The notes below the pieces were generated by a model. The model worked only from the letters and a program-made list of their open reading frames with translations, was not told the origin of the DNA and ran no database searches. Below, in pieces: positions 30,914 to 56,712 of a DNA stretch of 64,000 bases; within the stretch, counting starts at the first letter, position 1, and the number at the start of each line of letters is the position of its first letter. The stretch is from Candidatus Levyibacteriota bacterium (lineage in GTDB: Bacteria; Patescibacteriota; Microgenomatia; Levybacterales; UBA12049): NCBI GenBank assembly GCA_041906785.1, contig JAYRIM010000023.1, positions 64,019 through 128,018 of the forward strand, in the 5' to 3' direction. The position numbers were made by a program, and so were the translations under genes.

Positions 30914-31933
30914 ATGGCAGATAAAACAATGCTCGCAGTCATAAAAGAAAAACCCCAGGCAGGTGTCGTGCTTAAACAAGTTCCAATACCAGAAACGAAA
31001 CAAGAAGAGGTGCTTGTGAAAGTTAAAGCCGCATCTATCTGTGGAACTGACGTTAGTATTTATAATTGTACTCCATGGGCTGAAGGTCATATTACCCCCC
31101 CAATTATCATAGGCCATGAAATTGTCGGTGAAGTTCTAGAAATAAATACATCGCTTCCCACCCATATTAAAAAAGGAGATCTTGTATCCTCAGAAACTCA
31201 TATTTTCTGTAATACATGCTATCAATGTTTAATAAATAACAGACATGTATGCGAAAAAATGGAACTTTTCGGCATAGGAAGGAATGGAAGTTTTGCTGAA
31301 TATGCTACTATACCTCTTCGGACGACTTGGAAAAATGATCCTTCTATTCCGCTTAATGTTATGAGCGTTCAAGAACCACTAGGAAATGCTGTTCACGTCG
31401 TGACAAAAGCACAAGTAGCAGGAAAGACTGTCTGTGTTTTCGGTCTAGGACCTACTGGTTTATGTGCTGTAGCTGCAGCAAAAGCATATGGCGCAAAGAA
31501 AGTCATAGGAGTAAACCGTGGTGAATATAGAAGAAATCTTGCTATGAAAATCGGTGCTGACGAAGTATACGATACATTACCTGAAACATATAATAATGGC
31601 TGTGATGTAGTTTTAGAGATGTCAGGTAATGCTCATGTTTTACAAGCTGCTTTGACTGCAGTTCGCATCGCAGGAACATTAGTCTTTTTCGGTATTCCGA
31701 AAGAACCAGCTACTATAGACATCGGAAAGTTTTTGATTAATAAAGAGATTAATACACATAGTGTTTTCGGAAGGCGTATCTGGGAAACATGGTTCCAAGT
31801 AACAGATGTACTTGTTAATAAGAAAGTTGATTTAGAACCAATGGTAACTCACACATTTACACTTTCTGAATTTGAAAAAGCTATGGATGTTATGAAAAGT
31901 GGAGAATGTGGAAAAATTCTTCTCATACCATGA
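30914..31933 (+). CDS. tdh: L-threonine 3-dehydrogenase (zinc-dependent MDR family)
   Basis: [42 protein letters not shown] Rossmann motif. Classic tdh-kbl pairing downstream. Confidence 0.85.
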
Positions 31934-33120
31934 AAGATTTCTACTCATATCTACATACTCAATTAGCAGATAAAACCGTTCCTACAGTCGAATCAGGCCA
32001 AGGAGCTTATTTAACAATTAATGGCAAGAAAAAGCTGAATCTTTGCTCAAATAATTATCTTGGATTTGCTGCAGATGAAAGATTAAAAAAAGCTGCTATA
32101 AAAGCAATCGAACAATATGGGGTAGGTACAGGTTCTGTACGTGCTTTATCAGGAACAAATACGCTACATATACAACTTGAGGATGCACTTGCGAAGTTCA
32201 AATATGCAGAAGGATGTATCGTTCTCACAGGAGGGTATATGGCAAATCTTGCAGCAATTCAAACGCTTATTGGGAAAGAAGATATAGTTATTTCGGATGA
32301 GTTAAATCATGCTTCTATTATTGACGCCATTCGGTTATCTGCAGTGAAAAACAAATTTATCTATAAACATGCCGATATGACCGACTTGGAGAGCAAACTG
32401 CAGGAAGCAAATAAAGTAGCACAGAATCCGAAATCAGATGGTCAACAGCCACTCATGTTACTTGTTACGGACGGTGTTTTTTCGATGGATGGTGATCTCG
32501 CACCATTACCACAAATTGTGACTTTAGCGAAACAATATAATGCAGTTACTATGGTTGACGATGCTCATGGTGAAGGTGTTCTTGGTACTCATGGACGTGG
32601 TATTGTTGATCATTTTAACCTTCACGGACAAATAGATATTGAAGTGGGAACATTATCGAAAGCATTTGGCGTCATGGGAGGATTTATTACTGGGAAAAAA
32701 GACCTTATTACATTTTACCGGCAAAAAGCTCGACAGTTTCTTTTCTCGAATGGATTATCTATTCCTGATACAGCCGCACTATTAGAGTCAGTTACTATTC
32801 TTGCAGAGTCTGACGAAGAAGTTAAAAAATTATGGAATAATGCGAAGTATATAAAAGAAAATCTTATTGCAGCGGGTTTTGATTGTGGAAAGTCAGAGAC
32901 GCCAATAACACCTGTTATGTTAGGTAACGAGGATACTGCCAAAAACTTTAGTGCAAAATTACTTGAACATGATGTATTCGCGACACCTATTGTATTTCCA
33001 ATGGTTCCAAAAGGGAAAGCCCGTATTCGTGTTATGCCTTCATCATCTCACGAGTTGAAGGATTTAGATTTCGGAATATCTATATTTAAAAAAGTTGCAC
33101 AGGATATGCAGATACTTTAG
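31930..33120 (+). CDS. kbl: 2-amino-3-ketobutyrate CoA ligase (glycine C-acetyltransferase)
   Basis: Full-length PLP-dependent aminotransferase class-II fold: [11 protein letters not shown]…[17 protein letters not shown]…[11 protein letters not shown]…VDDAHGEG…TLSKAF. ATG at 31930 overlaps the tdh stop (ATGA). The track ORF starts further upstream at 31906. Confidence 0.85.
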
Positions 33121-33151
33121 CCTCAATTTCTGCTATAATAAACCTCATCGT

Positions 33152-34330
33152 ATGGCTAGAAAAAGAATATCAGAATTCCGTGCAAAGACACTTCTCTATC
33201 AAGAACTTGGTGTCCCATATACAGGTATACAAGTCACCAATAAAAATCTTCCATTATTTCTCAATTCTCAATTCTCAACTCTCAATTCCGATCAGTATGT
33301 TGTAAAAGTAGATCAAGGTGTAAAAGGTCGATTTAAAAAAGGTCTCGTGTTACTCAACCAAACAGCTGAACAATTACCAAGAGCCTTAGAACAATTAAAA
33401 CAAAAAGGTTACTCTCAATTCCTCATCGAAGAAATGACCTCTCATGAACCATCAGACGAGAAATATCTTTCTATTGAAAGAGTGAGAGAAGGATATAAAA
33501 TTTTCTATTCTAAAACAGGTGGAGTGAATATCGAAGAATCTGGACATGTCAAACAAATAATTATTCCTTATTCAGAAGATTACTCAATGCAGACCGAAGA
33601 AATCGATTCAAATTTCCTACGCCAATTATTAAAAACCTTTGATACATACTATTTCTCATTCCTCGAAATTAATCCATACATAATACTTGATACAAAATAC
33701 TTACTACTTGACGCAGCTGTTGAAGTAGATAGCACAGCTGCTTTTTTCGTAAATAATGCATGGACTGAAAAGGATTTTACGGATGGGAGTATTAGGGAAA
33801 AAACTCCTGAAGAAAAGAATGTACAAAAACTAGCAGAAAACAGCCAAGCAGCATTCTCTCTCGAAGTTTTAAATCCAAATGGAAGTATTTTCATGATGTT
33901 ATCAGGAGGTGGCGCGAGTATCGTTCTTGCCGATGAGGTTTATAACGAAGGATACGGAAAAGAACTTGCAAACTATGGCGAATACAGTGGTAACCCAAAC
34001 GCAGAAGAAACATATATCTATGCAAAAAATCTTTTATCTCTTCTTCTACGATCAATTGCCAAAAAGAAGGTATTAATTATCGCAGGTGGTGTAGCGAATT
34101 TCACTGACGTCAGAATAACGTTTAAAGGTTTGATTAAAGCTCTAGATGAAGTCAAAACTCAGCTTCAGACACAAAATATACAGGTATTTGTCAGACGAGG
34201 AGGCCCTTATCAAGAAGAAGGTTTGCAACTTATGAAGCAGTTTCTTGAACAAAACCATTTATTAGGAGTAATAGCAGGACCTGAAATGGTATTAACTGAT
34301 ATTATTACGAAAGCAACTCAATCATTATGA
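33152..34330 (+). CDS. aclB: ATP-citrate lyase small (beta) subunit-like ATP-grasp protein
   Basis: Aligns with the N-terminal part of eukaryotic ACLY / Chlorobium AclB: KRISEFRAKTLLY, FLEINPY, LNPNGSIFMMLSGGGASIVLADE…ELANYGEYSGNPNAEETYIYAKNLLSLL, IIAGGVANFTDV…FKGLIKAL, VFVRRGGPYQEEGLQLM. ATG at 33152; the track ORF starts at an upstream TTG (33095). Confidence 0.75.
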   Translation: MARKRISEFRAKTLLYQELGVPYTGIQVTNKNLPLFLNSQFSTLNSDQYVVKVDQGVKGRFKKGLVLLNQTAEQLPRALEQLKQKGYSQFLIEEMTSHEPSDEKYLSIERVREGYKIFYSKTGGVNIEESGHVKQIIIPYSEDYSMQTEEIDSNFLRQLLKTFDTYYFSFLEINPYIILDTKYLLLDAAVEVDSTAAFFVNNAWTEKDFTDGSIREKTPEEKNVQKLAENSQAAFSLEVLNPNGSIFMMLSGGGASIVLADEVYNEGYGKELANYGEYSGNPNAEETYIYAKNLLSLLLRSIAKKKVLIIAGGVANFTDVRITFKGLIKALDEVKTQLQTQNIQVFVRRGGPYQEEGLQLMKQFLEQNHLLGVIAGPEMVLTDIITKATQSL

Positions 34331-36120
34331 TCGATATCGAATTATTACGAAATACGAAACATAAGATAATCTGTATTGGTTCGCATAAGCCGATCATTCA
34401 ATCAATGTTCGATTTTGATTTCCTCTCCGGAAAAACAGAACCAAGTATTATATGTATTATCGCTTCAGGAAGACGATTTGAACGCTATTTCTTTGGAAAA
34501 GAAGAAGTTCTTATTCCGGTATATGACTCTATAGAAAAAATTCCAGCCAGTATCAAAAAAAGTCTCACATTGTTTTTTAATACAACATCTGCTCGTCGGG
34601 CGAAGCAGAGTAGTATCGATATTCTAGAATCAATGCCCAATCTTCTTGGAGGAACTATTTTTGCAGAGGATGTTCCTGAGAAACACGCTTTAGAGTTAAC
34701 TCAATTTGTGAGTAAAAAAAAGCAATGGATTGTCGGACCAGCTAGTGTTGGTTTTATTATCCCTGAGTCTTTTAAAATTGGGGCAATAGGAGGAACTGAC
34801 TATAGACAGCTCGTCGCTTCAAATGTGTTAACTTCAGGAAATGTCGCTATTCTTTCTGCTTCTGGAGGCATGGTAAATGAAATAATTCGTATCTCAGGAC
34901 AAAATGAAAAAGCAATCTCCTTTTCATTATCGTTCGGTGGAGATCGATTTCCTATTCTTTCTCCGAAAGAAGCATTTCTGGCTGCGGAGAAAGATGCTCA
35001 GACCGAACATATCCTTTATTACGGAGAATTAGGAGGAAATGATGAATATGATATTATCGATTTAGTAACCTCAAAAAAGCTTACAAAACCTATTATCTGT
35101 TATATAGCAGGCACTGTTTCAGACCTTTTTGAAACCCCCCCACAATTCGGCCATGCGAAAGCAATGGCAAAATCCCAAGGTGAAAGCGCGAAAGAGAAAC
35201 GGGAAGCGATGAGAAATGCAGGAATAACAGTTGCTGAGACATTCGGCCAATTTGTGGGATATGTTAAACAAATACCATCGAAAAACTTGGTAGAAAAAGA
35301 TAAGTATAGTACAATGATGCAAACTATGACTGACAGAAAATCAGCTCTCATAACCTCAACGATTTCTTCCGATCGAGAAGGTGATGCTACTATTCTGGGA
35401 GAAAATCTGCTCTCTTTCGCAGAAACACGTACTTTCGCTGGAATAGTAAGTTCCCTATTTCTAGGCAAAAAAGATGTTTCGAAAGATTTAGAGACATTTA
35501 TAGATTTCGTACTTCGGTTATTAGTGGACCATGGGCCATATGTTTCAGGAGCTCTCAATACTATTGTTACCGCAAGGGCAGGAAAAGACCTCGTCTCATC
35601 TCTCTCTGCTGGTTTACTTACAATTGGCCCGCGTTTTGGCGGTGCTATCAATCAAGCTGCTATGAATTGGTTACAAGGTGTGATCGAACAAAAAAATGCA
35701 TACAATTTCGTAGAAGAATTCGCAAGTCAGAAGATATATATCTCTGGCATTGGACATCGTAAATATCGTATAGATTTTCCAGATCCACGAGTTACTGCTC
35801 TTTTAGAACATGCAAAACATCTTGAAAAAAAACGATTTACATATTTTGCCTTAGAGGTCCAAAAGATTACTACATCAAAAAAAGGTAATCTTATTTTGAA
35901 TGTTGATGGTGCAATCGCTGCAATACTTCTAGATATCCTTTCTGAAAAAGAAGGTATGTCAGATCACGAATTAAAACAACTCACTGAAACAGAATTTTTC
36001 AATTCTTTATTCGTACTTTCAAGATCCGTCGGCTTTATCGCCCATTATCTCGACCAGAAACGACTCGATGAAGGCTTATTACGATTACCAGATGAGTTAG
36101 TAAGTACAAGCGAAATATAA
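34327..36120 (+). CDS. aclA: ATP-citrate lyase large (alpha) subunit-like protein (CoA-binding/succinyl-CoA-synthetase-alpha-like + citryl-CoA-lyase domains)
   Basis: Phosphohistidine loop [32 protein letters not shown] (ACLY: [30 protein letters not shown]). Citrate-synthase-like C-terminus [47 protein letters not shown] (ACLY: [44 protein letters not shown]). Start overlaps the aclB stop (ATGA). Confidence 0.75.
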   Translation: [597 protein letters not shown]

Positions 36121-36173: not shown

Positions 36174-37145
36174 ATGCATGTCTATACAGATTATCAGCTC
36201 TCAGATACCCTATGGTATAAAATCGGTGGAAAAGCGAGATATTTTATCCAAGCCTCAAGCAAAGAAGAAATTATACAAGCGGTAGAGTTTATTCACGAAA
36301 AAGGAGTTAAAAAAATATTTGTATGTGGATTAGGTTCAAATGTTGTCTTTACAGATGGCTTCTTTGATGGTGCTGTCATCCAGATAACGACACCTGATAA
36401 AAAAGATATTACACTTTTAGATGATAATCACATACAAGCGTTTGCGGGGGTGTTACTTGACGATGTTATAAATGTAGGATTTGAGAACCAACTTGTAGGT
36501 CTTGAATGGGCAGGAGGTTTACCTGGAACTGTAGGCGCTGCTGTGAGAGGCAATGTCGGAGCATATGGTGGGGAAATAAAAGATATTCTTCAAGAAGCTG
36601 AGGTTCTTATGCTTCTTGATGATGAAACATATGAGATAAAACGCTATACAAATGCAGAATTACGATTTACCTATCGGGGAAGCCTTATTAAAGAAAATCA
36701 TGGAAGAATGATCATACTTTCAGCTCTATTTAAACTCAAACGTGCATCTGAAAACGAACTTGTTGAAGCGAAACATATATACGAAAAGCATATTCAACAA
36801 CGAAAAGAGCGACATCCGCTCGAATATCCAAACACAGGATCCGTATTTAAAAATATTCGTGAACCTGAAAAAGTTGCTGAAATTATTAAAAAATTTCCTG
36901 AAATAAAAGATTTGGTTAAAGAAAAATGGTTTAATAAAGTTGCAGTAGCTTATTTCATTCAGAAATTTGGTTTACAAGGATATCGCGTTGGTGATGCGCA
37001 AATTTCAAAAAAACATGCACTCTTTATAGTTAATCTCGGCAAAGCTACAGCAAACGATGTGAAACAAGTCATTGAAAGAGTACAATCCACATGTAAAGAA
37101 ATGTTTGGATTCCCACTAGAAACCGAGGTTGAGATAGTAACATGA
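36174..37145 (+). CDS. murB: UDP-N-acetylenolpyruvoylglucosamine reductase
   Basis: FAD-binding domain (KIGGKARYFI…VCGLGSNVVF) and C-terminal MurB domain. Confidence 0.85.
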   Translation: MHVYTDYQLSDTLWYKIGGKARYFIQASSKEEIIQAVEFIHEKGVKKIFVCGLGSNVVFTDGFFDGAVIQITTPDKKDITLLDDNHIQAFAGVLLDDVINVGFENQLVGLEWAGGLPGTVGAAVRGNVGAYGGEIKDILQEAEVLMLLDDETYEIKRYTNAELRFTYRGSLIKENHGRMIILSALFKLKRASENELVEAKHIYEKHIQQRKERHPLEYPNTGSVFKNIREPEKVAEIIKKFPEIKDLVKEKWFNKVAVAYFIQKFGLQGYRVGDAQISKKHALFIVNLGKATANDVKQVIERVQSTCKEMFGFPLETEVEIVT

Positions 37146-38374
37146 AGATAGCTCAACCTCGACTTTTTGAACCAATTGATACAACACTTCGTGAAGGAGC
37201 ACAATCACCTCTTCTGGATGACACTAATAAATTTTTCTTTTCGCAAAAAGAGAAATTAGATCTTATTGATGCGTTATCTAGATTTGGTGTTCGCTATTTT
37301 GAAGTTTTTTCTCCTATAGTTAGTCAACAAGAACATCAAGATTTATTAGCAATAATTGCAAAGAAAAAAGAGCTTCAGGATGAACTGAAAACGAAAATTT
37401 TTATTTTGTCACATGTGCGTTGTCATCCTGCTGATATCGAATTAGCGATAAACGCAGGAGTAGACGGCTTAAATATATATATAGGGACGTCTGAACATTC
37501 ACGAAAGTATAATCATGGAAAAGAATTAGACACGATTATAGGAAAGGCCAGACCTCTTCTAGCTCAGATAAGAAAACAAAATCCTCATATGATAATTCGA
37601 TTTAGCGGAGAAGATGCATTTCGAACTTCTGAAAAAGATCTTTTTTATGTCTATGATCAGATAATAGAATATGTCGATCGACTCGGTACACCAGACACTG
37701 TTGGAATAGCAGATCCAGAACATATTGCTAAAAGAATACAAGCTCTAAAAAAACGCTATCCTCATATACCGCTTGAAGGACACTTTCATAATGATCGGGG
37801 TTTTAGTTTAGTGAATGCATTGACTGCTGTGTATAATGGAATGGAATTTATCAATACCTCTATTTTAGGATTAGGCGAACGTTCTGGAATAACTTCAATG
37901 ACTGGTCTTTTCCTTAATTTATATCTACACGATCCTACGTATTTAAAAAAATTTGACAGTTCTGTTATGTACGCTTTAAACGTATTAGTGGCAGACATGT
38001 TAAACATACAAGTACCTACAACAGAACCTGTCAGTCTTACAAACCGAACCCATTCTGCTGGTGTACATACAGGTGCTCAGCTGAAAGGTAGTAGCGCATA
38101 TGAAGCACTTCCTTTAGCGGAGTTTGGGGTGAATGAGACGAGATTACTCCTAGGACCGCTCAGCGGATCACATATTATTCGGTATTATCTCAAACATATT
38201 TTAAATTATGCAGTAAATGATGAAATTGTTCCAGTGATTACTAACGAATTTAAAAATCGGATATATAAAAAGACAAAAAAACAAACTCCAACAGTAGTAT
38301 TAGAACAGATTGCCAAATCATTTAAAATCCCACATATTTCAAGACCTGTAGCACACGAGGAGTATCTTCAGTAG
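37142..38374 (+). CDS. LeuA/NifV-family (DRE-TIM metallolyase) 2-oxoacid:acetyl-CoA condensing enzyme - homocitrate/citramalate/Re-citrate-synthase-like
   Basis: DTTLREGAQSP (canonical DTTLRDGEQ), LEGHFHNDRGFSLVNALTAVYNGMEFINTSILGLGERSGITSM (HxH…GxGERxGN), LLLGPLSGSH (LGKHSGRHA). 410 aa. ATGA overlap with murB. Confidence 0.7.
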   Translation: MKIAQPRLFEPIDTTLREGAQSPLLDDTNKFFFSQKEKLDLIDALSRFGVRYFEVFSPIVSQQEHQDLLAIIAKKKELQDELKTKIFILSHVRCHPADIELAINAGVDGLNIYIGTSEHSRKYNHGKELDTIIGKARPLLAQIRKQNPHMIIRFSGEDAFRTSEKDLFYVYDQIIEYVDRLGTPDTVGIADPEHIAKRIQALKKRYPHIPLEGHFHNDRGFSLVNALTAVYNGMEFINTSILGLGERSGITSMTGLFLNLYLHDPTYLKKFDSSVMYALNVLVADMLNIQVPTTEPVSLTNRTHSAGVHTGAQLKGSSAYEALPLAEFGVNETRLLLGPLSGSHIIRYYLKHILNYAVNDEIVPVITNEFKNRIYKKTKKQTPTVVLEQIAKSFKIPHISRPVAHEEYLQ

Positions 38375-38392: not shown

Positions 38393-39883
38393 TTAGTATT
38401 TGTACGGATACCCGCTATTGCCTGTATTTAACATAAAGTAAACAATAACAATTGCGACAATAAAGTACACAAGAAGCCAAAGGAAAGTTGCCACGAAGTT
38501 CAAAACTCCCCAGACCAATCCTCGTTTCGTACCTATAATATATGAAGGAGCTATGAGTAATGCGAAGTACACACCGAGAGAGAAAACCAGTATCATTAGT
38601 GACAGTAATGTATTAAAGGTATAATCATATGAATATTTGTTTATAACGAATGAATACAGGAAAAATATAAGTAGCGTATGTATAGTCGCGAAAAGTGAAG
38701 TGAAAAAACTTACGCCAGATGTAATAAGAAAGCTTTTTTGTACTGATGATAATAACGCATGTTGATCTGTCGCAGGCTGTACATTTCGCCGGGATCGTAT
38801 TTTCTTAATCATTATAAAAGCTATAATAATAATTACTGCTAATAAGAAAAGTAATACAAGAGCTCCTATGAGTACCTCTTTACCGTATAGTCTCCATAAG
38901 CTTTTCGCATATGCACCTTTCACCGTATAGGTTTCCATTGGACTCAAATTACTTGCATATTTTGTTAAAGAACCATAGCCGATATTATTTATGAAATCAT
39001 CAAGTTGATAGCTGCGAATTTCATCATCAGAATCAAATGATGAAGGTCGTAATGAAGTGCTAAGTCCCTGATTATATCCTACAGAACCTGATCCACCTTT
39101 AAGAACATAATCCTGTTCTGTAGAAATACCTACTTGTAATGAACTGATGGTGTTGTCTGTCTTTAATGTTTTAAATTCATATCGATAGACTTGAAACAGA
39201 TCTTCTGAAGTAAAATCAGAAGTTCTATAACTTAGTAAAAGAGTAGTAGATTCATTTGATGAGGTAGGATTTGGTAAGGTTATTTTTAATCTGTCTCCTT
39301 CTCTATCTACAGATGCTTTTTTGTATATATAGCTACTGGAACTATAATCTGTATAACAATCATCATTAGGAACTGGATATGCTTTCGACGATTCAGAATA
39401 TCCAGGGGTAGGTGTAATTGGATATGCAGTGGGAGTTGGATAATAATATGATCCATCTTCCTTATACATTGGTTCTGAAAGTGGATATGGAGGATTAGGA
39501 AGATATGGATAACATGATTTTTGTGGTCTATATAACTGCTCAAGTGCTACTACATCACGTATTTCTTGAGAACTCGGTAATTCATAAGTTAAAGTTTTAA
39601 TTGAACCTTCACTTATACTAGATAAAAGTACCCGTAGACTGACAACTGCCTCACCATTACCCCGAAGATATACAGAATAATAATGTGTCTCACCAAAAAA
39701 GAGTGGCTGCTTATATGAAGGTGGAGGAACTCGAATTGGCATTAATTTTTCCTGAGCTCTACTTTGTGAAATAAAGAGAGGTAAACCGAAAAGTAAAAGA
39801 CCTATGGTGATGAATGTTAAACGAAGAATATGATTTCGCATACTAAATATAGTAGAGCATATGAATAGAGCGATGTCAATCAA
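38393..39883 (-). CDS. Hypothetical secreted/membrane protein: signal peptide, Pro/Tyr/Ser-rich extracytoplasmic domain, multi-TM C-terminal region
   Basis: Probable start MRNHILRLTFITIGLLLFGL (about 39841). Low-complexity PTPTAYPITPTPGY region. About 5 C-terminal TM helices. No family recognised. Confidence 0.45.
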   Translation of the reverse strand: MIDIALFICSTIFSMRNHILRLTFITIGLLLFGLPLFISQSRAQEKLMPIRVPPPSYKQPLFFGETHYYSVYLRGNGEAVVSLRVLLSSISEGSIKTLTYELPSSQEIRDVVALEQLYRPQKSCYPYLPNPPYPLSEPMYKEDGSYYYPTPTAYPITPTPGYSESSKAYPVPNDDCYTDYSSSSYIYKKASVDREGDRLKITLPNPTSSNESTTLLLSYRTSDFTSEDLFQVYRYEFKTLKTDNTISSLQVGISTEQDYVLKGGSGSVGYNQGLSTSLRPSSFDSDDEIRSYQLDDFINNIGYGSLTKYASNLSPMETYTVKGAYAKSLWRLYGKEVLIGALVLLFLLAVIIIIAFIMIKKIRSRRNVQPATDQHALLSSVQKSFLITSGVSFFTSLFATIHTLLIFFLYSFVINKYSYDYTFNTLLSLMILVFSLGVYFALLIAPSYIIGTKRGLVWGVLNFVATFLWLLVYFIVAIVIVYFMLNTGNSGYPYKY

Positions 39884-42182
39884 CCGCTTCCCTCCTAGCC
39901 TGAAAAGCTCTATAATAGCACCTATGTACTGGGCTGATACTATTGCAAAAGAAATTAAAAAACGCGGTCTTACTCTAGAATGGGTTGATGATATGAAAAC
40001 ACCCTCTGGAAGAATTCATGTAGGATCTCTTCGTGGTGTAATCGTACATGATCTTGTATATAAAGCCTTAAAAGATACAGATGTGAAAACTAAATACACC
40101 TATGTTTTCGAAGATCAAGACCCTATGGATGATCTTCCTGTATATTTACAACGAGAAAAATATGAAAAATATCTGGGACTACCTCTTTTTAAAGTTCCAT
40201 CTCCAGAACCAGGATATGCTCACTATGGAGAGTTTTTTGCTTTAGAATTTAAACAAGTTTTTAATGCTATTGGTTGTCAACCAGAAATTATTTGGACTTC
40301 CCACCTCTATAAAAGTGGAAGAATGAATACAGACATCAAACTGTGTCTCGATAACGCTGCAGATATTCGAAAAATCTATGAGGAACTGTATAAAAAACCT
40401 ATGCCAAAAGATTGGTATCCTTTTCAAGTGTATTGCGAAAACTGTGGGAAGGTTGTAACGACAAGAGTATTTGCTTGGGACGGTGTAAAAGTTTCATATA
40501 GATGTGTAAAGAATGCGGTAGACTGGACTAAAGGATGTGGATATGAAGGAAAAGTAACACCTTTCAGTAACGAACAAGGAATGACAGGAAAGTTACCATG
40601 GAAAATAGAATGGCCTGTCAAATGGAAAGTTATTGGAGTGACTGTCGAAGGAGCTGGAAAAGACCATATGAGTGCCGGTGGATCACATGATTTTGCTAAA
40701 TTAGTTTGTGAACGAATTATAGATTACCCAGTACCCTATCCTTTACCATATGAGTTCTTCCTTGTTGGAGGTAAAAAAATGTCCTCTTCAAAAGGCAGAG
40801 GTACTGCAGCTATAGATATGCTCGAAATCTTACCTCCAGAAATTCTTCGATTCCTTATGGTAAAAACAAAGCTAAATCAAGCAATCAATTTTGATCCTTC
40901 TGGAGATACTATTCCTAAATTATTTGACGAATATCAAAAAGCAGCAGAAGCATATTTAGAGAAAACTGATACTGATTTAGCGAGAGAATTTGAATTATCC
41001 CAAATAGATGGAGTACATAAACCACCTACTATACGCTTTTCAGCACTTACCCAGTGGATACAAATGCCTAATATGGAGAGCAAAATAAAGGACGAAGGAT
41101 TAGAAGAGTGGGCCAAATTTGCTCGTACATGGGTTGACCGATATGCGCCAGAATCAGAAAAATTTGTTGTTCAAAAAAATACACCGTCTGAAGCAAATAA
41201 TTTAACCTCCAATCAAAAATATTATTTACAATTAATCGCTGATGAACTTGAAAAAACTCGTAGCCCAGAAGAATTACAATTAAGAATGTATGAAATTTCT
41301 CAAGAAAGAAATCTCTCTTCTAAAGAAGCTTTTGCTGCCATTTATACTGCTTTACTAGGTAAAAACCATGGTCCTAAAGCCGCATGGCTGTTATTATCTC
41401 TTGATAAACAGTTTGTAAAAGAAAGATTCACAAAAATCTCATCCAATAAAACCTCTCAGGAAAACCCAAGAAATATTACAAAACTTAATCGTCCCGAGTT
41501 ATTTCACATAGACAAGCAAGTCAGCGGAAACTATCCCACGATCTCTGTCGGTTTAGCAATAATAAAAAATATTAACGTTCGTAAAAGTAATGATACTCTC
41601 GAGAAAGAAAAAGAGACGCTTCTAAAAAATTTTGAGGAATTAACAACAGAACAGCTTGGGGCATATCCAGAAATACAAAGTTATAGAAAATTATATAAAC
41701 AGATGGGTGTTGATTGGCATTCACGTCGGCCAAGTCCCGAAGCACTGCTCCGAAGAGTGGCGTTAAAAAAAGGACTTTACACCGTAAATACGTGTGTCGA
41801 TGCGTATAACCTTGTTGTAATGAAAGAAAGAGTTTCAGTAGGAGCGTTTGATTTAGATAAACTGCAATTCCCAACTCTTATGCGTTTTCCTAAACCGGGT
41901 GAAGAAATACTCCTCTTAGGAGATAGTGAACCAACTGCGTATAAAGAGACAGAGCTTGCATATTTTGATCAACAGGGAGGATATAACATTGACTTCAATT
42001 ATAGAGATGCTCAAAGGACGGCAGTGACTGAACAAACAAAAAATGTATATATAAATGTTGATGGTATTTACGATATTACTCCAGATAAAGTGCAACAAGT
42101 TCTAGAAGAAACCTGCGAGATTATAATGAAATATTGTGGGGGAAAATTAGAACTTTTCGGTGTACAATTAGCAAAAGAATAG
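39861..42182 (+). CDS. lysS: Class I lysyl-tRNA synthetase fused to a C-terminal B3/4-type domain (PheT editing-domain fold)
   Basis: Class I aaRS motifs PSGRIHVGSLRG (HIGH-type) and KMSSSKG (KMSKS), archaeal-type LysRS-I core. Residues about 530-773 carry YPEIQSYRKLYKQMGVDWHSRRPSPEALLRRVALKKGLYTVNTCVDAYNLVVMKERVSVGAFDLDKL, resembling the B3/4 domain. Probable start MYWADTIAKE (about 39924). Confidence 0.8.
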   Translation: MNRAMSINRFPPSLKSSIIAPMYWADTIAKEIKKRGLTLEWVDDMKTPSGRIHVGSLRGVIVHDLVYKALKDTDVKTKYTYVFEDQDPMDDLPVYLQREKYEKYLGLPLFKVPSPEPGYAHYGEFFALEFKQVFNAIGCQPEIIWTSHLYKSGRMNTDIKLCLDNAADIRKIYEELYKKPMPKDWYPFQVYCENCGKVVTTRVFAWDGVKVSYRCVKNAVDWTKGCGYEGKVTPFSNEQGMTGKLPWKIEWPVKWKVIGVTVEGAGKDHMSAGGSHDFAKLVCERIIDYPVPYPLPYEFFLVGGKKMSSSKGRGTAAIDMLEILPPEILRFLMVKTKLNQAINFDPSGDTIPKLFDEYQKAAEAYLEKTDTDLAREFELSQIDGVHKPPTIRFSALTQWIQMPNMESKIKDEGLEEWAKFARTWVDRYAPESEKFVVQKNTPSEANNLTSNQKYYLQLIADELEKTRSPEELQLRMYEISQERNLSSKEAFAAIYTALLGKNHGPKAAWLLLSLDKQFVKERFTKISSNKTSQENPRNITKLNRPELFHIDKQVSGNYPTISVGLAIIKNINVRKSNDTLEKEKETLLKNFEELTTEQLGAYPEIQSYRKLYKQMGVDWHSRRPSPEALLRRVALKKGLYTVNTCVDAYNLVVMKERVSVGAFDLDKLQFPTLMRFPKPGEEILLLGDSEPTAYKETELAYFDQQGGYNIDFNYRDAQRTAVTEQTKNVYINVDGIYDITPDKVQQVLEETCEIIMKYCGGKLELFGVQLAKE

Positions 42183-42277
42183 AAGCACTACAAATATTTT
42201 AGCGATTTACTACCTCTAATACTTTTCCCACCTTTGATACCTTTTTCTTTTTTGCTATAGTATCATTTATCTGCGTT

Positions 42278-53787: not shown

Positions 53788-56712
53788 ATGGCAGACACCA
53801 TAGCCTTCAACGAAGAACAGATAAAAGCAGTACAGCATGGAGATGGTCCACTGCTGATAATTGCTGGTGCTGGAACAGGTAAAACAACAGTTATCACACA
53901 GCGCATAAAGTATCTTATTTTAGAAAAAAAAGTTGATCCATCATCGATCTTGGCATTAACCTTTACTGAAAAAGCTGCGAAAGAAATGGAAGAACGGGTA
54001 GATATCGCACTTCCTTATGGGTACACGCAACTTTGGATTTCTACTTTTCATTCTTTCTGCGACAGAATCCTCCGAGATGAAGCTGTTCATATAGGTCTTA
54101 ATCCGGCTTTCAAATTATCTACAGAAGCAGAATCAATGCTCTTTTTGAAAAAAAATCTTTTTAAACTCCAATTAGATTACTTCCGTCCTTTAGGTAATCC
54201 TTACAAGTTTCTTCAGGGAATGCTGCAGCATTTCAGCCGTGTGAAGGATGATGATATTACTCCAGAAGATTATTGCAAATTTGCAGAAGAAATGAAGCAA
54301 AATACAGCTGAAGATCCACTAGAAGTTAAAAAAGTGGTTGAGCTTGCATACGCTTATAAAACGTATGAAGAACTAAAAGTTAAAGAAGGTATTATGGATT
54401 TTGCTGATTTAAATGCTAATGTTCTTAAACTTTTCCGAATGCGTTCAAATATTCTCGCCTATTATCAAAAAAAATTTCAGTATATTCTCGTTGATGAATT
54501 CCAAGATACAAATTATGCCCAAAACGAATTGGCAATGTTGCTCGCAGGTAAAAAAAGAAATATTAATGTGGTAGGGGACGATGACCAATCAATTTACCGT
54601 TGGCGTGGAGCAGCAATTGCAAATATCATTCACTTCCGTGAACACTATCCTGAAGCTGCAATTGTAACATTAACTCACAATTACCGCTCGTCAGAAGAGA
54701 TCCTTGATGCTGCATACAGACTCATTCAACATAATAATCCTGACAGGTTAGAAGTAAAAGAACATATAAATAAAAAACTACTAGCTGTACGAGGAAAAGC
54801 CAAAACAGAAGTCGAATTCCTGTATGCAAATAGGGTAGAAAATGAAGCAGAAGCCGTAAAAAACACTATTAAAAAGCTCGTCAAAGAGAACAATCTCAGC
54901 TTTAGAGATATTGCTATTTTAGTTCGAGCAAATGACCATGCCCAGCCTTTCGTCCGGGCACTCGAACGGGCGAAAATACCCTATCAGTTTTTAGGACCGG
55001 GGCATTTATTTCATCAGGAAGAAATTAAAGATTTAATTGCGTATTTAAAAGTGCTTTATAACTTTGAAGATAATGCAGCAATGTATAGAGTGTTAACACT
55101 ACCCATGTTTCAATTAGAAGCGCGGGATATTGCTGCTTTACTGAACCATGCAAAAAAGCAGAATTGCACGCTATTTGAAGCTTGCGAGCAAGCAGAAACG
55201 CTTTACCTACAAGATAAGACGAAAACAAATATAAGCAAACTTATTGCGATGATTAAAAAACACTTACAATCAGTCCCACGTGAGACAGCTGGACAAATTC
55301 TATACTACTTTCTAGAAGATTCAGGATTACTCCAACAATATCTCGGTGCTCAGCTACCACAAGAAGAAAAAAAAGCGCAAAATATTGCAAGGTTTTTTGA
55401 GCGTTTGAAGTCATTTGAAGCAGGGCATCCTGATGCATCTGTTTTCGCTGTGGTTGATTGGATCGAGCTTGCCATGCAATTAGGAGAAAGTCCGCTTGCA
55501 GCAGATATGGATTGGTCGATCAATAATGCTGTCAATATACTAACTGTTCATTCAAGTAAAGGATTAGAGTTTCCTGCTGTATTTCTCGTCAGTCTTGTCT
55601 CACAACGTTTTCCGACAAGAGATAGAAAAGAACAAATCCCAGTGCCCGAGAACATGATTAAAGAGCAACTTCCAGAAGGTGACTATAATCTTCAGGAAGA
55701 GCGCCGGCTTTTCTATGTAGGTATGACTCGTGCGAAAGATTTCTTATTCCTTTCTGCGTCACAATTTTACGGAGAAGGACGAAGAGAACGAAAAATATCT
55801 CCATTTGTCTTCGAAACACTTGGCGAAAACAAAATTAATACAATTATTAAGAAAGAAAAGGATGCACAAGTTGTTCAGCAACTATCTTTATTAGATCTCG
55901 CGAATGATAAAATCCAGCAAGAAAACCCGACAACTCATACCCCACAACTCACAACCCACAACTCACAACCAATTTCATATATTTCTTATTCTCAAATTCA
56001 ATCTTTCGATATATGTCCCCTGCATTATAAATTGCGATATATTTTAAAAGTACCTCCAGTTACTACAGCTGCCCAAAGTTTCGGCATGAGTGTGCACGCT
56101 GTATTGCGTGATTATTACCAACATATGATTAATGGTGAGCCTATTGAAAAGCTATCAATTGAAACGCTCTTACGGGACCGCTGGATTCCAATCGGATTTG
56201 AAAGTAAAGAACACGCAGCATCAGCATTTGAGGAAGCAAAATCGGCTCTTATCCAATTCGTGGAAAAGAACGGAAATGCTTCAGTAAAACCGCTGGGATT
56301 AGAAATACCATTTTCTTTCTATATGAATGGTATTAAAGTTGCTGGACGGATAGACCGTGTTGATGCATTACCAGATAATAAGATTGAAATTATTGATTAT
56401 AAAACAGGCTACCAAATACCAGATGAAAAAAAACTAGGTGATGACTTACAGTTATCCTTATATGCACTTGCTGCTTCTGAAGTTCATGATGTAATTTTTA
56501 ATAAAAAACCTGAAGAAATAATTCTTTCGTTATGGTATGTTGAAAAGGACGTAAAAATCTCTACCACTCGAACTGCCGCAGAACTTGAAGTCGTAAAACA
56601 GCAACTGCTAGAAAAGATTGAACAGATCAGTAAAAGTCCGTTTACCTGTCGTGGAAGTATGCTTTGTAATAATTGTGAATATAAAATGCTTTGCCAGACC
56701 TTTTTAAGTTAA
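53788..56712 (+). CDS. UvrD/PcrA-family SF1 helicase fused to a C-terminal PD-(D/E)xK (RecB/Cas4/AddB-type) nuclease with Cys cluster
   Basis: Helicase motifs GAGTGKTT, DEFQDTN, VGDDDQSIYRWRGA, VHSSKGLEF. C-terminal IDRVD…IIDYKTG…QLSLY nuclease motifs and FDICPLHY…CRGSMLCNNCEYKMLC (4 Cys, Fe-S-type as in AddB/Cas4). Confidence 0.8.
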   Translation: MADTIAFNEEQIKAVQHGDGPLLIIAGAGTGKTTVITQRIKYLILEKKVDPSSILALTFTEKAAKEMEERVDIALPYGYTQLWISTFHSFCDRILRDEAVHIGLNPAFKLSTEAESMLFLKKNLFKLQLDYFRPLGNPYKFLQGMLQHFSRVKDDDITPEDYCKFAEEMKQNTAEDPLEVKKVVELAYAYKTYEELKVKEGIMDFADLNANVLKLFRMRSNILAYYQKKFQYILVDEFQDTNYAQNELAMLLAGKKRNINVVGDDDQSIYRWRGAAIANIIHFREHYPEAAIVTLTHNYRSSEEILDAAYRLIQHNNPDRLEVKEHINKKLLAVRGKAKTEVEFLYANRVENEAEAVKNTIKKLVKENNLSFRDIAILVRANDHAQPFVRALERAKIPYQFLGPGHLFHQEEIKDLIAYLKVLYNFEDNAAMYRVLTLPMFQLEARDIAALLNHAKKQNCTLFEACEQAETLYLQDKTKTNISKLIAMIKKHLQSVPRETAGQILYYFLEDSGLLQQYLGAQLPQEEKKAQNIARFFERLKSFEAGHPDASVFAVVDWIELAMQLGESPLAADMDWSINNAVNILTVHSSKGLEFPAVFLVSLVSQRFPTRDRKEQIPVPENMIKEQLPEGDYNLQEERRLFYVGMTRAKDFLFLSASQFYGEGRRERKISPFVFETLGENKINTIIKKEKDAQVVQQLSLLDLANDKIQQENPTTHTPQLTTHNSQPISYISYSQIQSFDICPLHYKLRYILKVPPVTTAAQSFGMSVHAVLRDYYQHMINGEPIEKLSIETLLRDRWIPIGFESKEHAASAFEEAKSALIQFVEKNGNASVKPLGLEIPFSFYMNGIKVAGRIDRVDALPDNKIEIIDYKTGYQIPDEKKLGDDLQLSLYALAASEVHDVIFNKKPEEIILSLWYVEKDVKISTTRTAAELEVVKQQLLEKIEQISKSPFTCRGSMLCNNCEYKMLCQTFLS

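Follow-up and report, generated by a model that had tools for sequence, protein, structure and literature searches.

Among amino-acid specificities, lysine alone is served by two unrelated synthetase classes, neither of which is known to carry a post-transfer editing domain. According to published descriptions, lysyl-tRNA synthetase (LysRS) has no hydrolytic editing domain appended to it, yet it is known to misactivate or mischarge several amino acids; its reported fidelity comes from discrimination in the active site, from pre-transfer cyclisation in class II and, for Ser- and Thr-tRNALys, from trans factors. In the window, by which we mean the whole 64,000-nucleotide stretch of the Candidatus Levyibacteriota contig analysed here, a single gene joins a class I LysRS to a C-terminal B3/4-family module. 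The features of the gene are as follows.

39861..42182, + strand: fusion ORF (LysRS and module), single frame, no internal stop
39924..39926, + strand: probable start codon ATG (M22); homologues begin with MYWAD or MFWAD
39924..41435, + strand: complete class I LysRS body, residues 22-525 (Rossmann catalytic domain, Zn-type insertion, anticodon-binding helices; TIGR00467, PF01921, PF19269)
40002..40025, + strand: class I signature 1 (HIGH-like), PSGRIHVG, residues 48-55, nearly invariant in alignments
40776..40796, + strand: class I signature 2 (KMSKS-like), KMSSSKG, residues 306-312, conserved in 61 homologues
41436..41492, + strand: variable linker, residues 526-544, predicted flexible; alignments show no consensus
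41493..42179, + strand: CtdA-like B3/B4 module, residues 545-773, supported as a complete unit of the stand-alone deacylase family by HMM, profile, fold and matching start points
41712..41756, + strand: motif DWHSRRPSPEALLRR, residues 618-632, with an S-x-E-A-L-x-R-R core common to the family (alignment)
41787..41810, + strand: motif NTCVDAYN, residues 643-650; N650 aligns with CtdA N105 and E. coli PheRS-beta N254 (alignment/profile)
41835..41852, + strand: motif SVGAFD, residues 659-664; G661 aligns with CtdA G116, F663 with CtdA E118 and PheRS F267 (alignment/profile)
41976..42008, + strand: motif GGYNIDFNYRD, residues 706-716; N709, D711, Y714 and D716 align with CtdA C166, R168, W171 and Q173 (alignment/profile)
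42051..42065, + strand: motif INVDG, residues 731-735; N732 aligns with CtdA I189 (alignment/profile)

The maximal ORF runs through 773 codons and a stop in a single frame, with no internal stops or frameshifts, and thereby reproduces the one ORF that the initial annotation had placed at 39861-42182. Homologues cover the query from residue 22 (‘MYWAD’; 97% query coverage) and, because they begin there, the start was placed at M22; the ATG at 39924 is probably the true start, which would give a product of 752 aa. The 63 nt upstream of M22 overlap the maximal ORF of a divergent gene.

Such an architecture could arise if two adjacent genes were merged by an error of sequencing, assembly or gene calling, a reading for which it may be said that body and module lie in different frames at one related locus (L062) and that a stand-alone module gene exists (L058). 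Against it stands the uninterrupted ORF: the initial annotation had allowed that the extension might be a separate gene behind a hidden frameshift or stop, and re-inspection found neither. Both Pfam domains are present in 120/120 best homologues, which come from independent assemblies. The survey of LysRS-I architectures proposed in that annotation found the class I body and module in-frame at 60 of 69 related genome loci (two of the 60 are cut by a contig end). In the alignments, the junction is an in-frame linker, and the module has no conserved start codon of its own. The intact ORF, the two-domain homologues and the in-frame loci refute an artefact, to which we assign practically no probability.

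The synthetase portion fits its first description, namely about 520 residues of class I LysRS bearing PSGRIHVG and KMSSSKG. The NCBIfam equivalog TIGR00467 (lysS_arch) matches residues 22-525 at 356.6 bits (cut-off 147.55) and spans model positions 1-513 of 515; Pfam tRNA-synt_1f (PF01921) covers residues 23-381 (E 6e-89) and PF19269 gives a weak match at residues 445-524. Both motifs were found, and K285, M286 and S289 of KMSSSKG (752-aa numbering) are invariant in 61 sequences. As part of the best explanation, the gene product would be a functional class I LysRS, with charging activity predicted. In a full-length model of the 752-aa form, residues 510-515 have pLDDT < 50 and pTM drops to 0.67, and hence no confident inter-domain geometry can be derived.

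The C-terminal ~240 residues, including the segment YPEIQSYRKLYKQMGVDWHSRRPSPEALLRR, had been assigned to the B3/4 family, and the HMM, the predicted fold and more than 100 homologues all agree. Pfam B3_4 (PF03483) matches residues 608-760 with E 1.2e-21 and 77.6 bits, above the gathering score of 29.3, and over profile positions 2-174 of 174. The homologous unit exceeds the Pfam match, extending over 229 residues from about residue 545 (‘PELFHID’) to the C-terminus; both a stand-alone version of 229 aa and the fusions to class II LysRS start at this same point. The module was modelled with pLDDT 93.1 and pTM 0.91, and Foldseek matched it with probability 1.00 to over 30 PheRS-beta chains as well as to CtdA, identifying a B3/B4 alpha/beta fold.

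The further specification as a PheT-editing-type domain is not the best description; the free-standing trans-editing-like proteins, to which the initial annotation alluded only briefly, are the closer match. Against the CtdA structures 9mkl and 9f7e, the module model gave TMq 0.78 and TMt 0.83 over 231 aligned columns (E ~2e-15), compared with TMq 0.53-0.60 for PheRS-beta, and the whole-protein CtdA topology, including the CtdA-specific helical insert, is present. The profile search ranks the two in the same order (CtdA, E 5e-7; PheRS-beta, E 4e-4). With TIGR00472 the protein reaches just 20.5 bits, far under the cut-off of 402.65, and the module does not lie inside a multi-domain PheT beta subunit. 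Fold and profile comparisons thus support the module as a complete CtdA-like unit from a free-standing branch of the B3/B4 superfamily rather than a PheT-type domain.

CtdA is an experimentally proven aminoacyl-tRNA deacylase (PMC10018355, PMC12449066), and its mutational analysis allows the pocket to be read position by position, with the mapping made by sequence and profile alignment at 16-17% identity. The N105A and G116H/W variants of CtdA are inactive, the strictly conserved C166 and Q173 set its canavanine activity and specificity (PMC12449066), and E118, Q173 (Gln or Glu in the family) and I189 line the canavanine pocket. N650, the N105 equivalent, does not vary among 61 fusions drawn from Microgenomates, Anaerolineae, Peregrinibacteria and Gracilibacteria, and G661 is invariant within the Microgenomates set. 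The specificity positions F663, N709, D711, D716 and N732 differ from CtdA and form a set that is invariant within the group. Of the six experimentally defined CtdA pocket residues, four are replaced (E118F, C166N, Q173D and I189N); at the C166 position, other LysRS fusions carry N, T, C or A. The module is also under stronger constraint than the synthetase body, with a mean pairwise identity of 63% vs 49% across 55 fusions, and dN/dS values of ~0.04-0.09 indicate purifying selection.

Pocket composition varies with the fusion partner. C-terminal LysRS fusions have F/Y at 663 (35/36), D716 (33/36) and D711 (31/36), ArgRS-fused modules retain a CtdA pocket of the canavanine type (E663, 6/6; E/Q716, 6/6; W714, 5/6), and TyrRS-fused modules show a third pattern. 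Stand-alone relatives without known function frequently have F/Y663 (62/82) and D716 (66/82), so this signature is not unique to LysRS fusions; D711 is the only position clearly enriched in them (31/36 vs 13/82 stand-alone). A few LysRS2 fusions, P0214 (C-terminal) and P0186 and P0192 (N-terminal), have a canavanine-type pocket, an argument that the substrate does not invariably follow the fusion partner.

The module is not confined to class I enzymes. It is also fused to class II LysRS bodies, where it is 58-70% identical to that of the window and has the same pocket motifs. Three of these bodies score 440-554 bits with TIGR00499 (cut-off 427.6) and a fourth, L060, falls just under it at 414.7 bits; the class II bodies form three groups that are 35-48% identical to one another. 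A stand-alone gene of 229 aa (L058/P0125) has a pocket identical to that of the fused module, as expected for an autonomous enzyme. In Levybacteria, LysRS1 with module, LysRS2 with module and plain LysRS2 occupy one shared locus, with the order lysS, rdgB/Ham1, then serS or PEGA/SH3-UbiA. As judged from sequence, this is an exchange in situ of the class I body for a class II body, with the 3' module retained. Many Levybacteria have plain LysRS2 at this locus, so the module is dispensable in some lineages, and close relatives of ~523 aa in Anaerolineae are class I LysRS without the module.

From these observations, the module is, with somewhat better than even probability, an aminoacyl-tRNA deacylase on a tether, proofreading tRNALys that carries a near-cognate amino acid in place of lysine. 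The LysRS body would bind tRNALys and charge it; the module, tethered to the LysRS C-terminus by a flexible linker of ~20 residues, would then sample the aminoacylated 3' end, hydrolyse the ester bond when a non-cognate amino acid fits its pocket, and reject Lys-tRNALys. Fusion would thereby lend the module proximity and a specificity for tRNALys, both missing from a small deacylase on its own. In the pocket, the Asn that places the water for hydrolysis and the small Gly known from CtdA are both kept, and the canavanine-recognising residues are swapped for an invariant Phe, an Asn, an Asp pair and a further Asn. The Asp pair suggests that the substrate may be a cationic near-cognate of lysine, such as a shorter diamino acid (ornithine), a lysine analogue with a hetero-atom, or arginine; Orn-tRNA is believed to cyclise by itself (PMC8001834), which weakens ornithine as a target. 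The initial annotation had offered tRNA-binding help and hydrolysis of mis-acylated tRNA as options, of which the latter is favoured because the catalytic-site Asn is kept, because the pocket, though re-tuned, does not vary, and because the module occurs as an independent gene too.

Those same features bear on the alternatives. As a non-catalytic RNA-binding appendage of the Trbp111/EMAPII/Arc1p kind, the module would raise the affinity of LysRS for tRNALys or help to hand it on. B3/4 folds can bind RNA or the ribosome, with Foldseek also matching LRRC47 on the 40S subunit (8xp3); the basic motifs SRRPSPEALLRR and KK are conserved in the module, the linker is flexible, and amino-acid activation by class I LysRS requires tRNA, such that added affinity could help. 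We nonetheless regard this as unlikely, given that the Asn essential in CtdA is invariant in fusions of four lineages, that the Gly is kept in Microgenomates, and that the module is found as a free gene. Within the group the residues lining the pocket do not vary, and from one fusion partner to another they change with the partner, which fits recognition of a substrate and not binding of a backbone. Moreover, one module serves LysRS of both classes, which reach the acceptor stem of the tRNA from opposite sides.

The module might instead be an active deacylase whose substrate is unrelated to tRNALys, engaged in general or other-tRNA trans-editing (for example of the canavanyl-tRNAArg type) and co-translated with an essential housekeeping enzyme for stoichiometry in very small genomes. 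CtdA itself works in trans on tRNAArg (PMC10018355), the flexible linker leaves domain geometry unfixed, three LysRS2 fusions have the canavanine-type pocket, and the neighbouring genes give no clue to function. The probability of this is nevertheless low: the CtdA residues replaced in the module include C166 and Q173, and retention of the CtdA pocket in ArgRS-fused relatives implies that partner and pocket normally match. The LysRS link also recurs in both classes, in at least three class II body types and in several phyla, and survives the in-situ body swap, which is hard to explain without a lysine-linked function. Very unlikely, in turn, is action on cognate Lys-tRNALys (through regulated discharge, or by binding to channel lysine) or on a lysyl ester outside translation. 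Some LysRS fusions are known to serve functions other than translation, such as the LysX/MprF type (which appeared as an NCBIfam model hit), and the acidic D711 and D716 could bind the lysine epsilon-amine. However, constitutive hydrolysis of its own product would be a futile ATP cycle, the precedent in the family points to rejection of the cognate amino acid, and no transferase-like domain or conserved partner gene was found nearby at the LysRS loci compared.

Proofreading of mischarged tRNALys thus remains our preferred reading. No fusion of LysRS with a CtdA-like module was described in the literature searched, and databases label the fusion proteins only as ‘lysine--tRNA ligase’, which is all that annotation pipelines now provide. 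The same module on both unrelated LysRS classes of related uncultured bacteria suggests a lysine proofreading step hitherto undescribed. More tentatively, and at slightly less than an even chance, LysRS would have gained a hydrolytic editing domain in several uncultured lineages (Microgenomates, other CPR groups and Anaerolineae), as a portable cassette common to both LysRS classes and swapped at one locus. By fusion (‘Rosetta stone’) logic, the stand-alone B3/4 proteins outside CtdA-1 would be tRNALys-linked deacylases against a cationic lysine near-cognate, and the ArgRS- and TyrRS-fused relatives would make the CtdA fold a re-tunable proofreading module for several synthetases. A deacylase-type module following lysine across both classes would imply a tRNALys fidelity problem yet unrecognised, for which the amino acid removed by the module offers a testable entry point. 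It would also provide a functional hypothesis for a large stand-alone B3/4 family, the only characterised members of which edit canavanine. The in-situ replacement of a class I body by one of class II is an unusually clean natural case of modular synthetase evolution. Practical value is modest, though such modules could serve in engineering fidelity or analogue resistance.

Among known systems, canonical class I LysRS of the archaeal type (TIGR00467) resembles the window body in its full-length equivalog match and both class I motifs; the canonical enzyme, for example that of Pyrococcus horikoshii, ends at ~520-530 aa and has no editing domain. The nearest relative of the module is CtdA, a canavanyl-tRNAArg deacylase of the ‘CtdA-1’ clade (PDB 9f7e, 9mkl; PMC12449066), with which it shares the whole-chain fold, the helical insert, a size of ~229 aa, the essential Asn and small Gly and, by prediction, aminoacyl-tRNA ester hydrolysis. 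CtdA is a stand-alone, arginine-related protein, and the Microgenomates module also stands alone in L058; that of the window is fused to LysRS and additionally carries R168D and W171Y. With its LysRS partner and its canavanine-recognition residues replaced, the module is predicted to have a substrate different from that of CtdA, and is placed in the large non-CtdA-1 branch, possibly as a candidate ‘CtdA-2’-like member.

The B3/B4 domain of PheRS beta, which hydrolyses Tyr- and m-Tyr-tRNAPhe, has the same Pfam family, core fold and Asn as the module and, unlike CtdA, the ‘AFD’ motif (F267 and D268 for F663 and D664, in alignment to 3pco_B). Like the LysRS fusion, it lies in cis within a synthetase polypeptide. 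It differs in its helical inserts and topology, in having H265 in place of G661 and G318, the structural equivalent of CtdA Q173, in place of D716, and in sitting among domains B1-B8, whereas the module hangs by a flexible linker on a monomeric class I enzyme or on a class II LysRS. The INS/YbaK/ProXp superfamily and AlaX/AlaRS, although unrelated in fold and not known attached to LysRS, likewise present one deacylase fold in free and in fused form, its specificity adjusted through changes in the pocket, and the dependence of YbaK on ProRS for tRNA specificity follows the same logic as that proposed for LysRS tethering. What sets the LysRS module apart from these systems is that a single lineage of it is common to two synthetase classes that charge the same amino acid without being homologous.

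The fusion gene occupies one frame of the window; residue numbers below refer to its maximal ORF unless 752-aa numbering is stated.

39861-42182, + strand: fusion ORF, 773 codons in a single frame, no interruption
Residues 48-55, + strand: class I motif PSGRIHVG
Residues 306-312, + strand: class I motif KMSSSKG

The N-terminal body is an intact class I lysyl-tRNA synthetase (LysRS1), as proposed in the initial annotation. The archaeal-type LysRS equivalog of NCBIfam matches residues 22-525 over nearly its full length (356.6 bits; cut-off 147.55), PF01921, the Pfam class I LysRS catalytic family, matches residues 23-381 (E 6e-89), and both signature motifs are present. The C-terminal B3/4 domain claimed alongside it was recovered by Pfam as PF03483 (B3_4) at residues 608-760 (E 1.2e-21; 77.6 bits, gathering score 29.3). 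Homologues begin at the MYWAD at residue 22, which makes the ATG at 39924 the probable true start of a 752-aa protein; codons 1-21 of the maximal ORF (39861-39923) are probably untranslated. This short stretch overlaps the maximal ORF of a divergent membrane-protein gene (38393..39883, minus strand), and a TATAAT-like box lies immediately 5' of the ATG at 39924.

The initial annotation had asked whether a frameshift or stop hidden in the extension might make it a separate gene, and had proposed a survey of LysRS architectures in relatives. No such break was found. The ORF is continuous over its whole length, both domains occur in 120 of the 120 best database homologues, and the class I body and the module share a frame at 60 of 69 related genome loci, two of the 60 being cut by a contig end. 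A hidden frameshift or separate gene is thereby ruled out, and the chance that the fusion is an artefact is vanishingly small. The sole frame change among the 69 loci occurs at L062:2287-4597, where the LysRS1 body lies in frame 1 and the module in frame 2; possible causes are a frameshift, an error in sequencing or a genuine division into two genes.

The homologous unit exceeds the Pfam match, running from about residue 545 (PELFHID) to the C-terminus. A stand-alone gene of 229 aa at the related locus L058 begins at the same point, with its own ATG and an upstream neighbour on the opposite strand, so the module also exists in autonomous form; in fusions to class II LysRS (LysRS2) it likewise starts at the equivalent of about 545. 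A profile of 21 modules retrieved CtdA, the stand-alone canavanyl-tRNAArg deacylase of the B3/B4 superfamily, as its top PDB match (9mkl, 4.9e-7; 9f7e, 4.4e-6), with PheRS-beta second at 4e-4 and weaker. The AlphaFold model of residues 531-773 (pLDDT 93.1, pTM 0.91) aligned in Foldseek with the whole CtdA chain (E ~2e-15, TMq 0.78, TMt 0.83, 231 columns), whereas TMq reached only 0.53-0.60 against PheRS-beta B3/4 domains. By the whole-chain match and the profile ranking, the module amounts to an entire CtdA-like protein and has the helical insert that sets CtdA apart from PheRS (PMC12449066). The B3/4 family assignment of the initial annotation therefore stands at the level of Pfam, but its PheT-type designation does not: profile and Foldseek searches both rule out a PheRS-type editing domain as nearest relative in favour of the CtdA type.

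We mapped the pocket by profile alignment to CtdA residues known from structure and mutagenesis (N105, G116, E118, C166, Q173 and I189).

CtdA pocket positions and their equivalents in the window protein
CtdA N105 (= PheRS N254): N650, kept
CtdA G116: G661, kept
CtdA E118: F663, replaced; Phe as in PheRS F267
CtdA C166: N709, replaced
CtdA R168: D711, replaced
CtdA W171: Y714, replaced
CtdA Q173: D716, replaced
CtdA I189: N732, replaced

CtdA is inactivated by N105A, G116H/W and Q173G, and its specificity for canavanine versus arginine is tuned by C166 (PMC12449066). None of the eight mapped positions varies among 21 Microgenomates modules, irrespective of partner. In 61 class I fusions drawn from four lineages, N650, the hydrolysis-critical Asn, is invariant and D711, R715 and D716 nearly so. 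Because N650 and G661 are kept while the other mapped positions are replaced yet invariant, the alignment argues for a retained catalytic framework with a different, fixed specificity-determining lining that is not a canavanine pocket. We reject canavanine editing: C166, Q173, E118 and I189 are replaced here and kept in ArgRS-fused relatives.

The module is strongly constrained. Among 55 class I fusions its mean pairwise identity is 63%, against 49% for the synthetase body, and dN/dS in the closest pairs lies at ~0.04-0.09 in the module, compared with 0.03-0.14 in the body; both ranges are approximate, dS being near saturation. The linker (526-544) has no consensus in alignments. In the full-length model both parts reach pLDDT 93, pTM drops to 0.67, and pLDDT dips below 50 at residues 510-515 (752-aa numbering); the latter two values indicate a module held by a flexible tether and not rigidly docked.

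The module recurs on both LysRS classes. In 69 species-level module-bearing genomes (Levy-, Gottesman-, Roizman-, Daviesbacteria and other Microgenomates), six carry a class II LysRS with the module at its C-terminus, in the architecture OB-fold, tRNA-synt_2, B3_4. Three of the class II bodies score 539, 440 and 554 bits with TIGR00499 against a cut-off of 427.6, with L060 lying slightly under at 415; the class II bodies form three groups of only 35-48% mutual identity. The modules they carry are 58-70% identical to the window module, have the same pocket motifs, and branch from three points within the class I-fused ones in a rough NJ tree that is indicative only. Synteny is the stronger evidence. 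At one Levybacteria locus, ordered (murB ... M20 peptidase), lysS, rdgB/Ham1, serS or PEGA/SH3, UbiA, GT4, we found LysRS1 with the module (L001, L007 and others), LysRS2 with the module (L008, L010) and plain LysRS2 (L071, L072). The shared position argues that these lysS forms are alternatives at one locus, and the 64-kb window contains no second, plain LysRS. As the three forms share this locus and the fused class II body is 73-81% identical to plain Levybacteria LysRS2, the catalytic body has been swapped in situ between LysRS classes that are not homologous, the 3' module staying in place; in some lineages the module disappeared or was transferred to a gene of its own. The most informative finding of this analysis is that the module follows lysine rather than the class I scaffold.

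The neighbourhood (murB, HMGL-like gene, membrane protein, PEGA/SH3, UbiA, GT4) gave no operon or functional clue, the 64-kb window contains no tRNA genes, and a promoter/terminator scan gave no signal above shuffles. Relatives have an rdgB/Ham1-like gene, often with serS, directly 3' of lysS (L007:4690-5301, L008:4823-5446); the window lacks the rdgB/Ham1-like gene at 42183-42277, where 95 nt separate lysS from the PEGA/SH3 gene. Elsewhere in the window, four co-directional ORFs at 30914-36120, one of which (34327-36120) joins CoA-ligase and citrate-synthase C-terminal domains, form an ATP-citrate-lyase/citryl-CoA-type cluster adjoining a homocitrate-synthase-like (HMGL) gene at 37142-38374; such central-carbon genes are unusual in a small Microgenomates-type genome. 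A 974-aa AddA/PcrA-like fusion of a UvrD-type helicase and a PD-(D/E)XK nuclease lies at 53788-56712.

An exhaustive module-only search of 1.84 billion cluster representatives returned 1,979 matches at E <1e-3. Among the best 150 of these, 82 modules stand alone, 36 are C-terminal to LysRS (22 on LysRS1, 14 on LysRS2), two are N-terminal to LysRS2, six are N-terminal to ArgRS in five proteins, one of which has two copies, and three are N-terminal to TyrRS, one also with a YbaK-type domain. The C-terminal LysRS fusions within this set carry F/Y663 in 35/36, D716 in 33/36 and D711 in 31/36. F/Y663 together with D716 is also what many stand-alone relatives usually carry; D711 alone shows a clear enrichment among the LysRS fusions (31/36 versus 13/82 stand-alone). 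ArgRS-fused modules have the canonical CtdA pocket, with E at the E118 equivalent and E/Q at the 173 equivalent in 6/6, W at the 171 equivalent in 5/6, and mostly Cys at the C166 position. TyrRS-fused modules show a third pattern (H/Y, T/C, W, Q). By these alignments the pocket tracks the fusion partner, with three exceptions, the LysRS2 fusions P0214, P0186 and P0192 (764 aa), which have a CtdA-1-like (canavanine-type) pocket; their module lies at the N-terminus in P0192 and P0186 and at the C-terminus in P0214. Class I fusions are also present in Peregrinibacteria and Gracilibacteria. Anaerolineae, outside the candidate phyla radiation (CPR), have them too, in one case on a 6.2 Mb contig, and close LysRS1 relatives of ~523 aa there are without the module.

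The metagenomic ArgRS proteins (P0190, 1124 aa with two tandem copies, P0197, P0221, P0223 and P0254) retain the E118, C166, Q/E173 and I/V189 equivalents and look like cis versions of canavanyl-tRNAArg deacylase. The TyrRS proteins are P0206 and P0266 (B3_4 + TyrRS) and P0226, with two different editing-type domains in series (YbaK-type tRNA_edit + B3_4 + TyrRS). An extra HD-domain (PF01966) occurs in P0427, P0428 and P0435 (~930 aa, LysRS2 + module) and in P0333 (992 aa, LysRS1 + module), and P0134 (973 aa), P0136 (906 aa) and P0148 (1072 aa) extend C-terminally beyond the module. Many MAG records with a Microgenomates-type gene and synteny (L001, L003, L006, L007 and others) are titled 'uncultured Gammaproteobacteria', the LysRS2 fusion P0134 is labelled Promethearchaeota, and other homologues are labelled Xanthomonadales, Methylomirabilota or Eisenbacteria; the taxonomic labels on these fusion-bearing records look unreliable.

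We favour, with somewhat better than even confidence, a role for the module in tRNALys proofreading. It would act as an aminoacyl-tRNA deacylase that strips a non-cognate amino acid from tRNALys, LysRS providing proximity and tRNA specificity much as YbaK relies on ProRS. The change of R168 and Q173 to two invariant Asp, and of E118 to Phe, suggests a pocket that might recognise a protonated amine with its far end closed or shortened. Speculative candidate substrates are ornithine or diaminobutyrate, arginine, and hetero-atom lysine analogues. Ornithine is weakened as a candidate because Orn-tRNA is expected to self-cyclise and Orn-tRNALys is reported to be made by LysRS2, not LysRS1 (PMC8001834).

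Other readings carry less weight. The module could serve as a non-catalytic tRNA-binding domain, which is unlikely; the hydrolysis-critical Asn is kept. It could also be a trans-editing enzyme of unrelated function that happens to be tethered to LysRS, to which we give a similarly low probability; the tether is flexible, but the pairing recurs in both LysRS classes. A module that acts on the cognate product, or has a non-translational role, is very improbable. Beside these, proofreading of tRNALys remains our preferred interpretation.

The accounts of LysRS fidelity in the searched literature describe active-site discrimination, class II pre-transfer cyclisation and trans factors for Ser/Thr-tRNALys. 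They include no appended hydrolytic domain. In the literature searched, with partial journal coverage, we found no description of LysRS + B3/4 or ArgRS + CtdA fusions, and the CtdA papers, which portray CtdA as strictly stand-alone, never mention lysyl-tRNA synthetase or fusions. The fusion sequences are public, annotated only as 'lysine--tRNA ligase'. Here a familiar editing fold has joined a synthetase that is not known to carry one. For the aaRS field, this is a module that spans the divide between class I and class II at a single locus; the fusion poses a concrete, testable fidelity question. Compared with known systems, the window module lacks the canavanine-enzyme residues of CtdA (C166, Q173, E118, I189) as well as H265 and G318 of the PheRS editing site, and lies inside both Pfam B3_4 and the CtdA structural family.
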